Program-made: the position numbers and the translations under genes
Shown here: positions 53,675-60,434 of the stretch, one piece after another
Layout: each line of letters starts with the position of its first letter
How positions within the stretch are numbered: the first letter of the stretch is position 1
Virus record (IMG/VR): IMGVR_UViG_3300031555_003522
Location: 1-64,000 of that record
Source of the DNA: a virus
Taxonomy: Duplodnaviria; Caudoviricetes
Direction: 5' to 3' (one strand)
Length of the DNA: 64,000 nt
Notes under the pieces: model-generated
What the model was told of the DNA's origin: nothing
Database searches by the model: none
The model's input: the letters and a program-made list of their open reading frames with translations, nothing else

Positions 53675-53678
53675 GCCA

Positions 53679-53686
53679 TATATTAT
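53679..53686 (+). promoter_or_regulatory. early promoter TATATTAT
   Basis: Same octamer at 23963, 35562(-), 47929, 49871, 58095, 60480, 61283, 62668 and 63479, mostly just after terminators; resembles the phiKZ early motif TATATTAC. Confidence 0.65.
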
Positions 53687-53717
53687 ACTAGTGATCAATA
53701 TACAGGAGGTTAAAAAC

Positions 53718-56700
53718 ATGGGCCAACAAAAGGAATTAATGGAGGCTATGGAGTTCTTTGATCCCATACCATTTCAATATGTGGATGAATGGACACCTGG
53801 TCCGGACGATGAAGTCTTTAAAACTACTCGAGGCGCAATAATGTTAGATGTATCTGGTTTCTATGGGATGGAACCAAACCCACAGCTAGATGCATTTGTA
53901 TTGAGTGCTAAGAGGTCTTATAATAATCCTGATATGAGGACCCATACGTGCCATTACCTGAACTATTTTGAAAAATTCTATGATACTGATCACGAATTAC
54001 CAATGATTTATTGTAGATTAAAGTATCTCATTGATTGTGAACCTGCTTATAGTAGAGAGGCATTTATTTACGATCTTTATCGTTATATTATGCATGGATC
54101 TATCTATACAAAGGTTAGCTATATGAATGATGCTAACTACAGTCTATCATTAACCTATAAAAACGTGAAGAATCCTAATCTTCAATATAGTGATTGAGAA
54201 CAGTCACCTCGATATAGAAATATAGCGAGTAAAACTCCTCTAATTGCTGGAAACTCGTAAAGCTCATCTGCTACGGATATGGGAAACGAAAAAGGGAGTA
54301 CCTATCCTACAGAGACGAAAGTCAGAAACAAGTGATGAGATGATCTATGAGGAAACTCTAAGGGTTTAGCCATCAATCGACAACCAGCAGCCAAGCAAAT
54401 TAAGCTACGCAAACTAGCTTCGGATTATTTTAAACATATATTCGCCGGTATGATGGAATTGGTAAGACATAAGAGACTTAAAATCTCTCGGATTAAGTTC
54501 CGTACCGGTTCGAGTCCGGTTACCGGCACCAACCTATTTATAGATTCTGTGGTTATGAATCTATACCAAAATATAATCCACATACTTAACCAGCGTAGCC
54601 AAGTTGAAGGTTCAACGACTATCGAAAGGATAGTGCGACATGCTTGCAACGCATGTGCATGAATAACCGAGTAGAGTAGGGCTCGAGCGAGCTCGAAATG
54701 GGGAGCACCTTAGCGGATAAGTGCCGAAGGTGAAGATATAGTCTGGACTATGGGTAATGCCTATAGAAGTTCATTAAAGAACTGCGCACCAAAAGCGACG
54801 TGCGTGAACATCTCGAGGCATGGACGGATAATGATGAAAGTATCAGTCCTCATGAATATAATTATCCCTCTTATGTGTCATTTTATGTATGCGCGTAAGA
54901 TTGATAATACAACTGAGTTTATTCTCGCTGTCTACGACGTACTTATTGATCAGTATGACGTAGATATATACAATAAGCTGTACGAAACGGCTATCTCTAA
55001 TGTCTTACGTACAGCAAAAAGAAATCAAGCAATCTGGAATATGCAAGATATTCGTGGTATCAATACTAGTATCCACAGTCTACAGTCAGTACAGAATGTC
55101 TTGATAAATATAATGCCTTAACCAAACTAGGGCCATATGATAGCAATATCATATAGCAAACTCCTTTAATTGCTGGGAACTCTCACTGAGACAATCAGCA
55201 GCGAAGCCTCTATATGGGGAACGTTCAACGACTATCGAAAGGATAATGTAAGAGAAATACTTACATGAATAACCGAGTAGAGTAGGATTTATGTCCGAAA
55301 TGGGGAGCATCTTAAATATGGTAATAGTATTTGAGATGAAGATATAGTCTACTCCTTGCAGCGATGTAAGGTATACAGGAAATATAGGTACGATGGAAAT
55401 TTGTGACAAAGTTTCCTCATGTGGGAACACATGATCCAACAAGCTCTCTAATTGCTGGGAACTCTCACTGAGACAATCAGCAGCGAAGCCTCTATATGAG
55501 GAACGTTCAACGACTAGTCGAAAGACGTAGGTTCAAGCGAACCGAAATGGGAGCCACCCCAATGCTTAATAAATAAGTAATGGGTGAAGATATAGTCTGG
55601 TCTGCATGGCAACATGCAGTAGTTCATAAGAGAACAGTGTAAGATTAGCGATCTTACACGAACAACCGCTTGTCCATCTCAACTACAAGTCAATTTTACG
55701 AAATACTGGATTTCAGGTTCTGGATAATCATTTAAATGTCCACATACATGGTAACATGTATAGTAAAACTTCTTTAATTGCTGGAAGGCTAAACTTGATT
55801 AAGCAAGCATGCTAATCAGCAGCCAAGATGTTAATTTAATGATTCGGAGAGTATCTAAAATGATGACTTATGATTTTTCCAATTATTCTTATAATGGACT
55901 TCAAGTCCCTATAGAATTTTGGAAACCCATTACAGAAGAAATGGTTCCAAATGTGAAACCAATATACTTTGTAAGTAATATAGGAAATATTTATAATTCT
56001 GAGAATAATAAATATTCTATAATTACACTAAAAGCTGGTAGATATGTACAGGTTAGTCTTCGTACTAAAGATGGAGGACAAATCTGTATTCATATTCATA
56101 GATTAGTGGCCATGGCATTTCATGGAATGCCACCATCTAAAGACCATGAAGTAGATCATGTAAATTGCGATAAAACCTGTAATTTTGAGGGTAATCTTGA
56201 ATGGGTAACCCCAAAAGAAAATATAAATAGAGCTTGCATAAATAATTTGATTAGGATGGGTGAAGATAATTATAGAGCTATCTTAACCAATGATGATGTA
56301 ACTCATTTATGTGAATTACTAATGCAATCCATTCCTATCTCTAAAATATGTACTATGATGGAAGAGTATATCTATCCTAGAGTATATAGCAGCGGATTTA
56401 AAGGCTTAATAGGTCATATATTATGTGGAGATGTATGGAAAGAAATCGCAAGTCAATACAATTTTCCAGATTACGGTAGATTAAATTTTACCGATGATCA
56501 AGTTCGTATAATATGCGAATGCCTGAGCAGACAGGAACGATATATAGACATTCTTGATAAACTCGGTATGAGCAACTGTACAGAGCAGGAATTGAAGAGA
56601 CTAAAAGAGACTATATATAAGATCAAAGCAGGTAAGTCTTATGCTAATATTTCTTGTAATTACAATATTACAAGAAATAAGAGTTATATACTTACAAATA

Positions 56701-58029
56701 ATGAAGTTGATAGTATATGTAGGCAAGTAGCTCTTGGTATTGATAGAAAGGAAATAGTAAAATCCTTAGGCGAGCGTGGTAATGATAGAAAGGTAAAACA
56801 AGCAGCATATGATATATGTAATGGTATCTGCCATAAAAAAGAAGTCAATTATTATAGATCTCAATTAACAGAAGGTTCAACGACTATCGAAAAGGATCCT
56901 AATAAGGATTAACTGAGTAGAGTAGGGCTCAAGCGAGTTCGAAATGGGAAGGGTCCACTAAAGTGGATCGTGATATAGTCTCAACTGTATGGAAACATGC
57001 AGAAGTTCATAGGAGAACTGCATAGGAGTTGCGATCCTATGTGAAGGTAATGATAGAATATGAATTCAGCTTCGTATCTCTTTCCTCAAGTCGCAGAGAC
57101 GAGGATCTTAATTCTGAATTTGATAAATTTGAGTCAACTTAAGAAAAGGCTCCTTGTTATAGAAATATAGCAAGCAAACCTCTTGAATTGCTGGGAACTC
57201 TTAATGCCTATCTGCCTATATGGAGACGAAAGTCAGAAACAAGTGATGGGATGATCTATGGGGAAACCCTAATGATTTTGATAATAGATAATCAGCAGCG
57301 AAGCCTCTTATTGAGAGGAACGTTCAACGACTATCGAAAGGCATCTATAGGATGAACCGAGTAGAGTAGGATATTTATATATCCGAAGTGGGAGGTACCT
57401 GACCGAGTAATGTCGAAGGTAATGATATAGTCTACTGAATAAGAACAGCTTTTCTTAATAAAGCAGATGAGCAGCTTCTGGTTCAGCATAATTGCGCTGC
57501 TAGAGATGCTATGACTATGATTGAAATGATGTATGGTCCTTTTGATGAGGAAGAAATATTGTTCTATAAACATCGTCTTGCAGATGGTGGGAAATGTACA
57601 ATCAATGCGTTCCAGAGAGACCTCATCTTCAATCTATTCTTTAAGTATTTTGGTGATACTGCTAGCTTAAATGCTATTAACTTCGATGACTATGTCAAGT
57701 TAATTATGGCATCCAGAAGAATTCTTGAAGCTTCTGGAATGGTATTATTGCCCTATATTGTAAGCTCTAAGATTGTTCGTCTTGCTAGCCGCAAGAGTGT
57801 GAACAAGAAAGAGCTTACCAAATTAGAATCTTCTCCCCTATGGGAAAAGATCAAAGATAAGTATAAGAATGATAAAATTGAGAAACACATACTTGGTATG
57901 ATTGCTGTCATATTAAGTAGTGACTTCGAGATCATTGATCCGGAAGATCTGGAGCTTGATGGCCAAGCTATTACAGTGATTCCTGAACTGATCTGTGAAG
58001 AAATTCTCATGTATATTAGTCTTATCTAA
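53718..58029 (+). CDS. spliced gene, six exons (53718-54194, 54816-55118, 55380-55400, 55669-55725, 57053-57134, 57449-58029), about 506 aa; probable non-virion RNAP promoter-specificity (sigma-like, AR9 gp226/phiKZ gp68 type) subunit
   Basis: Removing five introns (exon ends in U, intron ends in G) gives one open frame ..LQYSD|RHGRIMM..INIMP|KYRYDGN|LVHLN..QVLD|IEYEF..DKFES|FLNKAD..; identity inferred from recalled motifs, size and early promoter. Confidence 0.7.
54195..54815 (+). mobile_element. group I intron 1 (contains tRNA-Leu)
   Basis: P1 GTGAT/GTCAC with U.G; AATTGCTGGAAA, CAGCAGCCAAG, TTCAACGACTA, GATATAGTC core; 3' end G54815 (or G54818). Confidence 0.85.
54444..54531 (+). tRNA. 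trnL: tRNA-Leu(UAA), CCA encoded
   Basis: Acceptor GCCGGTA/TACCGGC, anticodon arm AGAGA-CTTAAAA-TCTCT, long variable arm, ACCGG-TTCGAGT-CCGGT, A73, CCA. Confidence 0.95.
55119..55379 (+). mobile_element. group I intron 2 (no ORF)
   Basis: P1 GCCT/GGGC; full core motifs; P9 CCTTGCA-GCGA-TGTAAGG; ends in G. Confidence 0.85.
55401..55668 (+). mobile_element. group I intron 3 (no ORF)
   Basis: P1 GGAAAT/GTTTCC; P10 TTGTC/GACAA; full core motifs; ends in G. Confidence 0.85.
55726..57052 (+). mobile_element. group I intron 4 (HNH homing endonuclease in P6)
   Basis: P1 TGGAT/GTCCA; core motifs flank the ORF; ends in G. Confidence 0.85.
55860..56912 (+). CDS. intron-encoded HNH homing endonuclease (NUMOD4-like N-term, three C-terminal helical repeats)
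   Basis: HRLVAMAF..VDHVNCDKTCN...NLEWVT.KEN; repeats LTNDDV/FTDDQV/LTNNEV; GGAGAG RBS before 55860. Confidence 0.85.
   Translation: MMTYDFSNYSYNGLQVPIEFWKPITEEMVPNVKPIYFVSNIGNIYNSENNKYSIITLKAGRYVQVSLRTKDGGQICIHIHRLVAMAFHGMPPSKDHEVDHVNCDKTCNFEGNLEWVTPKENINRACINNLIRMGEDNYRAILTNDDVTHLCELLMQSIPISKICTMMEEYIYPRVYSSGFKGLIGHILCGDVWKEIASQYNFPDYGRLNFTDDQVRIICECLSRQERYIDILDKLGMSNCTEQELKRLKETIYKIKAGKSYANISCNYNITRNKSYILTNNEVDSICRQVALGIDRKEIVKSLGERGNDRKVKQAAYDICNGICHKKEVNYYRSQLTEGSTTIEKDPNKD
57135..57448 (+). mobile_element. group I intron 5 (no ORF, very short 3' domain)
   Basis: P1 GAGT/GCTC; perfect 8-bp P10 AAGAAAAG/CTTTTCTT; core motifs; splits a Ser codon T|CT. Confidence 0.85.
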
Positions 58030-58628: not shown

Positions 58629-59597
58629 ATGATTTATTCTATTACCGAAGGCCAGCAGGCTGAAGAATATAAAGCTAGAAAGGCTAAAGAGGCTGAAGAA
58701 CATATTGCAAAAAATACAAGTAGATCTGAAACTGATTCTCTTGGAGATGGAATTATAAATTCACATTTTGTTGGGAATAAGACTAAAATACTTGATGATA
58801 AGAAAGGGCATTTTAAATTTAGCCATACGGATACTCGACGAAGAGAGATGGCTATGAATAAAGTAGTGGATGAAACTAAAAGAAGAAATGATAAAGCACT
58901 TCAAAATTTTACTCCTATAAATAATAGAAATGCGGATAATCTGCTTAGTGATAAATATTTTGGGGTTGCTGTTGATGCTGTAAATCGTCATATGCGGCGT
59001 CATCCTGATCAATATAAAGAATCTTTTTTACTTACAGAAGAAGATGCCGATGAATTCTTAGAATCTATCGGTGTAACTTTATATGAAGACTATGTTACTA
59101 TTGGAGAATGTTCCATTCCTGGAGTGGAAGCTGAAGCTATTCTGGAAGAGCACGGTATCTTCTTATGTGAAGAAGGTATCATTATCGAAGGTGAACAGGC
59201 TGAAGAATATAAGGCTAGAAAAGCAAAAGAAAAAGAAGATGCTAAGCAAGCTGATGATGATCGTTTTATGAGGAGATACATGCCTAGAATAGATGAAAAA
59301 GGACGTCAACATAACGATCCCGGAGATAAGACTATTGGATATGGGCATGGTAGTGATGATTTCGATAGAGCTATGAAAGCACACGATATGGCTAATCGCG
59401 AATATAATAGGCGGACCATTGCTATGATGAATTCTAAGTTACGTGGTGATGATAAACAAACTGTTCGACAAAAAGAAAAAGAATGGCTGAAATCTGTTGG
59501 TGAGACACCTAGAGATGCTGCTAATCGTCATATGCGTCGTCATCCTAAACAGTATAAAGAATCTTGTGGTATTTTCTCTAATGTAGCATTTATCTAA
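58629..59597 (+). CDS. putative internal head (ejected) protein, two tandem modules
   Basis: EGxQAEEYKARKAKE...DAxNRHMRRH..YKES twice; C-terminal ESCGIFSNVAFI; AACG-N6-TA promoter. Confidence 0.65.
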   Translation: MIYSITEGQQAEEYKARKAKEAEEHIAKNTSRSETDSLGDGIINSHFVGNKTKILDDKKGHFKFSHTDTRRREMAMNKVVDETKRRNDKALQNFTPINNRNADNLLSDKYFGVAVDAVNRHMRRHPDQYKESFLLTEEDADEFLESIGVTLYEDYVTIGECSIPGVEAEAILEEHGIFLCEEGIIIEGEQAEEYKARKAKEKEDAKQADDDRFMRRYMPRIDEKGRQHNDPGDKTIGYGHGSDDFDRAMKAHDMANREYNRRTIAMMNSKLRGDDKQTVRQKEKEWLKSVGETPRDAANRHMRRHPKQYKESCGIFSNVAFI

Positions 59598-59732: not shown

Positions 59733-60434
59733 ATGGAAAGAATTATTCTTACTGAAGCCGATGCCGATGAATTCTTAGAATCTATTGGTGTCACTTTATA
59801 TGAAAAGGCTATGAATATTGGAGGAAATATTGTATTTGGAGTAGACGGCCAAGAGGCCCTTCAAGAATATGGTATCTTCTTATATGAAGATTATATTTTG
59901 GTTGAAGGTGAGCAAGCTGAGGCTTACAAAGCTAAAAAGGCTAAAGAAAAAGAAGAAGAATCTAAAAAATATGATAAATATGATAATGATAATTTTAAAG
60001 ATTCTGCCCCAAAATTTATGAAGGGTTCTAGAGCAAATAATAGTGTAGGAAATCAAGCTAGTTTAAAACAGATTGATATCAAGGATATTAAAGGGTCTAC
60101 TAAAAAATATAGCGATACTAGATCTAATGACAGTATTAGGCGGCAGTATGCTTCGGATATAGTAGAAAAAGATAGATTAAATAGAAACCCTCAATATAGC
60201 GGAAAAGGAATAACTATTAGAACTTCTGATGGTAAACCTAGTTCATGGACTTTAGAAAGAGATTATAGAAAAGGAGCAATCAATCAAAATCCTCTTTATG
60301 ATAAATATTTCGATGATAAAGATAAAAGAATAGCATATTTTGCAGCTAAAGATGCTGCAAATAGACATTTACGTAGGCATACTAAGACGGTAAAAGAATC
60401 TTGTGGTATCTTCTCTAATGTAGCTTTTATCTAA
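59733..60434 (+). CDS. putative internal head (ejected) protein, paralogue of 58629
   Basis: Same acidic propeptide, module ends and identical C-terminal ESCGIFSNVAFI. Confidence 0.65.
   Translation: MERIILTEADADEFLESIGVTLYEKAMNIGGNIVFGVDGQEALQEYGIFLYEDYILVEGEQAEAYKAKKAKEKEEESKKYDKYDNDNFKDSAPKFMKGSRANNSVGNQASLKQIDIKDIKGSTKKYSDTRSNDSIRRQYASDIVEKDRLNRNPQYSGKGITIRTSDGKPSSWTLERDYRKGAINQNPLYDKYFDDKDKRIAYFAAKDAANRHLRRHTKTVKESCGIFSNVAFI

Follow-up and report, generated by a model that had tools for sequence, protein, structure and literature searches.

Introduction

Phage group I introns are usually regarded as selfish elements that persist through homing. The td intron of T4 with I-TevI in P6, AR9 g190 inside g189 and the RNA polymerase (RNAP) introns of phiKZ are all group I introns with an endonuclease gene in a peripheral loop. 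A review on group I introns in bacteria describes, in the passages covered here, ORFs as the only cargo (PMC3984707). Another well-described system is the group I intron of tRNA-Leu(UAA) in cyanobacteria and plastids. Here we analyze a phage intron that unites the same two partners with the nesting reversed: a whole tRNA lies inside the intron of an mRNA. A literature search, with limited coverage of subscription papers, returned no report of tRNA cargo in phage or bacterial introns. The tRNA cargo in this phage intron is a real and conserved variant, and apparently one not described before.

Results

A specificity subunit gene with five introns

The window, by which we mean the whole 64,000-nt stretch of DNA analyzed, comes from a 160-kb virus record with a GC content of 34% and split RNAP genes. 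Judged by its sequence, the phage is an AR9/phiKZ-like gut jumbo phage; the samples that contain its sequence are animal gut samples. Strong ribosome-binding motifs point to a host among the Bacillota.

A gene on the plus strand, at 53718-58029, is interrupted by five group I introns. Exon 1 (53718-54194) is followed by exon 2 (54816-55118), which is placed by intronless homologues and an RNA junction. Two micro-exons come next, exon 3 (55380-55400, 21 nt) and exon 4 (55669-55725, 57 nt), both predicted from the spliced frame; an RNA contig supports their combined length. Exon 5 (57053-57134) and exon 6 (57449-58029) complete the open spliced frame, which runs for 506 codons plus a stop once all five introns are removed. 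A homologue without introns (L009), which shares 46% identity with spliced L001, matches PDB 7s01_A (E 7e-12) and phrog_25005 (E 3e-20), and its homology to gp226 is full length. On these matches, the host gene encodes an AR9 gp226-like promoter-specificity subunit of the non-virion RNAP (nvRNAP), in agreement with a preliminary description of this DNA that had raised the possibility of a late-promoter specificity factor. Ahead of the gene lies an early promoter of the virion RNAP type (53676-53693, predicted start G53693). It fits a genome motif, ATATTATA-N5-TG, that is present ahead of 21 genes, and also the AR9 early consensus (PMC5312081).

Intron 4 carries an HNH endonuclease ORF (55860-56912; phrog_59, E 1e-31) in P6, between Q at 55817 and R at 56875. 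In run X1, a related strain has about 1.1 kb extra inside intron 5 (57272-57322), probably an endonuclease gene absent from the window. ORFs 58629-59597 and 59733-60434 are adjoining paralogues with repeated acidic and lysine-rich blocks, an identical C terminus, and similar upstream regions. About 16 to 18 kb ahead of the window start, a beta-prime gene has four more group I introns, and P6 of the second one holds a 91-aa ORF without an HNH look.

Intron 1 carries a complete tRNA-Leu(UAA) in P6

Intron 1 is 621 nt long (54195-54815). Its alignment to Rfam RF00028 (54185-54766) scores 51 bits, at a cut-off of 50, and covers the full model, 1-253, despite an insert. The P3-P8 core is present with the P, Q, R, and S elements, and the ends are those of a group I intron: a P1 wobble, U54194.G54203, and a terminal G54815. 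A junction at these ends restores the frame of intronless homologues. The Q element (54385-54395) supplies the 3′ strand of P4 and the 5′ strand of P6. R/P7, an insertion before the 3′ strand of P3, P8, and the S element occupy 54606-54743; in the Rfam alignment, that insertion lies at the P7-P3 place, where introns of subgroup IA2, which lack P5abc, have P7.1/P7.2.

A 210-nt insertion in P6, between Q and R, contains the tRNA. The P6 extension (54404-54599) is closed by two stems of perfect complements, 54404-54410 with 54593-54599 and 54422-54428 with 54573-54579, and the insert folds better than shuffled sequences (z = -2.67). An AU-rich leader (54433-54443) precedes a type II tRNA-Leu(UAA) (54444-54531) that is called by both ARAGORN and Rfam. 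It has the features of a bacterial tRNA-Leu, namely a long variable arm, A73, a 7-nt anticodon loop with UAA, and an encoded CCA. A hairpin, predicted by folding, follows in the trailer (54540-54564). Besides tRNA-Leu(UAA), the record contains one tRNA, a free tRNA-Met. Thus, the tRNA, its place in P6, and both closing stems are confirmed as first described. The proposal that the tRNA occupies the slot of a homing nuclease also holds; intron 4 has its HNH ORF in the same P6 place. The ORF list of the window contains no nuclease ORF in intron 1 that could serve for homing. Intron 1 is a group I intron by every criterion examined and, with no endonuclease of its own, does not qualify as a homing intron.

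We rejected three other identities for the nested element. A tmRNA-like RNA would call for a G3.U70 pair, which is absent; a remnant of an integration site does not fit the presence of both acceptor strands; and a permuted tRNA-intron origin does not fit a tRNA in normal order.

In close relatives, the intron splices and forms circles with the tRNA uncut

RNA evidence came from contigs of four gut metatranscriptome runs, all from one study, representing strains 85-99% alike to the window. A contig from one run joins 54194 to 54816. The same contig skips introns 2-4, with 81 letters between 55118 and 57056, the length predicted for the micro-exons; a separate contig skips intron 5. The 3′ splice site is G54815, and the 54194>54816 join, one of two earlier suggested (54816 or 54819), is fixed by intronless homologues. 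The same in-frame join is found at 15 complete loci.

Contigs from three runs contain a second junction, 54815>54198, in which the terminal G is joined to intron nt 4. This is the usual 5′-truncated circle, here 618 nt long (54198-54815), with the tRNA inside. An intronless DNA relative could account for the exon join but not for the circle junction. In two runs, circle contigs run through the uncut tRNA. RNA with the tRNA still joined to both flanks therefore exists in close relatives, and the earlier idea of the excised intron as a source of tRNA is compatible with a circle that still holds it. Contigs can show neither mature RNA ends nor charging nor levels, and the uncut tRNA is the form seen. 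One contig, from run X3, lacks the tRNA part of P6: 54417 is joined to 54585 at a 3-nt microhomology. It may reflect a reverse transcriptase skip or a real tRNA-less (deletion) allele.

An uncut tRNA on a circle raises the alternative that the tRNA shape is a protein-binding decoy, either uncut or after release. Carried on a stable circle, or as a short RNA ending in CCA, such a tRNA mimic could absorb tRNA-targeting defense enzymes; certain toxins are directed at the 3′ end of tRNAs. The shape could also recruit a synthetase as a splicing helper, just as the LeuRS and TyrRS of mitochondria help group I introns to splice. We consider a decoy unlikely on balance, and the comparison of relatives below bears on it from both sides.

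Relatives keep the cargo but not its anticodon

A search with the exon 1 protein returned 101 clusters; in 89 of these, the protein ends or its homology is lost at the intron site. Only about six close homologues, from a second, weak search, read through it. Intron occupancy at the site is probably high. Our sample at this site comprised 17 distinct introns, 16 of them picked by exon protein alone and thus blind to cargo. All 17 carry a tRNA or a tRNA top half in P6. Twelve are tRNA-Leu, five with UAA (two of these cut after the anticodon by contig ends) and seven with UAG. Anticodon type showed no clear pattern against local Leu codon use in these small samples. Among 11 Leu homologues, 19 of 24 tRNA pairs have compensatory changes.

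The remaining five have lost the anticodon arm or have an abnormal one and cannot decode normally. Two are minihelices of 48-49 nt (L005 and L083). In L112, a cloverleaf, the anticodon stem ends in GAAA instead of its loop; in L080, the anticodon loop is interrupted by an additional hairpin; and in L082 (2233-2308), the anticodon is CUA (amber) and its loop is abnormal. The well-supported branches of a host-protein tree give at least three separate origins of such forms. L005 has a sister with an intact tRNA, and L080, L083, and L112 form one old supported clade with three different designs. The notion of a useful tRNA as cargo is thus incomplete, given that these five of the 17 cannot decode normally yet keep the tRNA top half. 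Retention of the top half and CCA without an anticodon would suit a decoy, and so would the divergence of the tRNA body, which is 81% identical between the window and its closest relative while the flanks are 94-96% identical. The body evolves faster than its flanks, as it would under conflict. The same variants also count against particular decoys: loss of the anticodon loop speaks against a decoy for anticodon nucleases, and the minihelices lack the D and variable arms read by LeuRS.

Three further intron sites have cargo of the same kind. In L079, a second tRNA-Leu(UAA) lies in the third intron. A later intron of the gp226-like gene in L005 (10246-10383) and L074 (near 2110) carries an anticodon-less element of about 135 nt, in which a long hairpin replaces the anticodon loop; an intron at the catalytic motif of a beta-prime gene in L089 (7421-7554) has the same element, whose stems covary among the copies. 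ARAGORN and Rfam miss these long-hairpin elements. ARAGORN at relaxed settings returned noise, which we discarded. Most introns of the gp226-like gene are without a tRNA-like element, which means that opening of the circle is not a general need. The top-half motif was absent from the 53 other P6 inserts examined (31 short and 22 long).

Beyond this clade, BLAST against 50,697 GenBank phages returned no nested case, only free-standing tRNA-Leu genes and short intron-core matches, and the exon 1 protein had no match in the same set. Exact-pattern searches of GTDB genomes, a weak negative, gave no tRNA in P6. Pattern scans of IMG/VR placed the cargo in this phage clade only, the other matches being chance or free tRNAs. 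In unrelated phage introns (L071:4824-5101 and L072, minus strand), P6 has an insert of 257 nt, an AT-rich hairpin, and also a small ORF.

Could the tRNA be a neutral passenger, a gene that once landed in a permissive loop and has stayed there only as a fold that is compact and does no harm? P6 of these introns does take HNH genes, the 91-aa ORF, and AT-rich hairpins; decoding has been lost in several copies; and the tRNA-less contig of run X3 exists. However, folding needs no CCA, A73, or leader, and all the non-decoding forms keep these while their flanks diverge. Moreover, no sampled DNA copy has lost the element, and it recurs at four intron sites. We regard a neutral passenger as very unlikely.

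The constant features are those read by RNase P

The acceptor stem, T stem, T loop, and A73 are present in each of the 15 complete elements at this site, and CCA is encoded in 14. The exception is L111 (5120-5160), a tRNA without encoded CCA; after it, still within the intron, come a strong hairpin and a short T run that resemble a terminator. The D, anticodon, and variable arms are dispensable across elements. Across 20 cargo elements, leader positions -4 to -1 are A in 19, U in 20, A in 16, and U in 17. A-2 U-1 occurs in 15 of 20 leaders, far above the composition of the flanks, although the elements are related to each other. Bacterial RNase P recognizes a 12-bp acceptor-T helix, the T loop, a 3′ RCCA, and A-2 U-1, with a preference for U-1 and G+1 (PMC10731613). 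By sequence comparison, then, the constant features of the cargo are what bacterial RNase P reads. The window copy has the helix, the T loop, and ACCA, with C-1 where 17 of 20 elements have U-1. A conserved leader is accounted for by RNase P and not by a decoy that stays uncut. Retention of a tRNA or reduced tRNA shape in P6 suggests that a host tRNA-cutting enzyme is meant to excise it from the spliced intron.

The candidate late promoter is not conserved

The preliminary description had also proposed that the tRNA has its own late promoter with +1 exactly on G1, so that no RNase P step would be needed. The late motif itself is real. In this genome, AAC[A/T]-N6-TA occurs in 49 of 100 upstream regions, against 20 ± 4 in shuffled sequences, and at spacing 6 only; the AR9 late motif is likewise AAC[A/T]-N6-TA, and AR9 has a promoter inside an intron (PMC5312081). 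Before the tRNA, AACA-N6-CG is indeed present at 54433-54444, with AACA in register at -11 to -8 and without the T-1 of the AR9 T-A/G at -1/+1. Mutagenesis in AR9 found AACA to be essential and -1 to be tolerant, so the site could work as a promoter (PMC5449584).

Its function as a promoter did not gain support from relatives. Among the 20 cargo leaders, only one, that of the window copy, has AAC[A/T] in register, with 0.35 expected by chance, and in the closest relative (96% exon identity) the motif is 2 nt out of register. The CG-start form is not enriched in the genome (1 seen, 1.3 expected). We relied on motif counts here because our late-promoter weight matrix, seeded on TA starts, penalizes G starts. 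L077 has a perfect late motif, which would start transcription 4 nt upstream of the tRNA, so that RNase P would still be needed. Instead of a promoter, the leaders share the A-U-A-U end of an RNase P substrate. We also rejected an early-promoter reading of the leader, since none of the cargo leaders fits the early core. Transcription of the tRNA from its own late promoter is thus, in our judgment, highly improbable.

Discussion

The reading we favor, with moderate confidence, is that of an intron-nested tRNA that is transcribed from the early promoter of the host gene (53676-53693) and released by RNase P. Nesting, splicing, the circle, the uncut intermediate, and the RNase P signature are all seen in relatives, and from these we infer release. 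Host RNase P would cut at G54444 and 3′ nucleases would trim back to CCA, setting tRNA-Leu free early in infection. The same cut would open the intron, be it a circle, a linear form, or a precursor. A cut in P6 need not stop splicing, since the long closing stems could keep the halves together. Indeed, group I introns split in P6 remain active, so either step, the cut or the splicing, could come first (PMC11879131). Lasting selection would then act on the RNase P substrate, that is, the leader, the acceptor-T stem, the T loop, and RCCA. Decoding would be a frequent yet dispensable extra, given that a normal anticodon arm was lost at least three times and the body changes faster than the flanks. 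In the non-decoding forms, the cut may control the fate of the intron, or the CCA-ended RNA, once set free, may serve as a decoy.

More broadly, and only tentatively, we propose that some phage group I introns form a natural class whose P6 bears a swappable tag in the shape of a tRNA. The tag would be selected for cutting by host RNase P, which would open the circle or split the ribozyme in vivo and free a CCA-ended RNA that is useful without an anticodon. Such an RNA could, for example, be a decoy against tRNA-targeting defenses. The nuclease-free intron is found in most sampled members of the clade, and every examined DNA copy has a tRNA or a tRNA mimic; if the proposal is true, this benefit, and not homing, would keep the intron nearly fixed in the clade. 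The supply of tRNA would also be tied to splicing of a late-transcription factor. The locus offers a testable case of an intron kept for its noncoding cargo, comparable to eukaryotic introns that host small RNAs. The anticodon-less variants, which standard tRNA finders miss, are natural mutants that separate decoding from processing.

Intron 1 is like the nuclease-bearing phage introns of T4, AR9, and phiKZ in its ribozyme class, its P6 slot, and its kind of host gene, and its neighbor, intron 4, is such a case. It is unlike them in its cargo, a noncoding RNA (tRNA or tRNA-like) that contains no ORF and lacks a conserved promoter of its own. Tag-like use of a tRNA shape has parallels in mascRNA-type processing tags. 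Pre-tmRNA and phage C4 RNA, which are tRNA-like RNase P substrates, likewise use an acceptor-T stem and RCCA as a cutting signal without decoding (PMC10731613). Unlike all three, the phage element is embedded in a ribozyme loop and an intron circle. Putative tRNA genes have been annotated inside introns of fungal mitochondrial protein genes (Ophiostomatales atp6 i1 and cox1-1281); in the accessible part of that report these are sporadic annotations, one after a LAGLIDADG ORF, with no mechanism described (PMC7902536). In contrast, the phage cargo is kept across a clade and at four sites, including non-decoding forms. Finally, engineered permuted or split group I introns show that splicing tolerates a break in P6, as we propose here; those introns are artificial, whereas in the phage a host enzyme would make the cut in vivo (PMC11879131).
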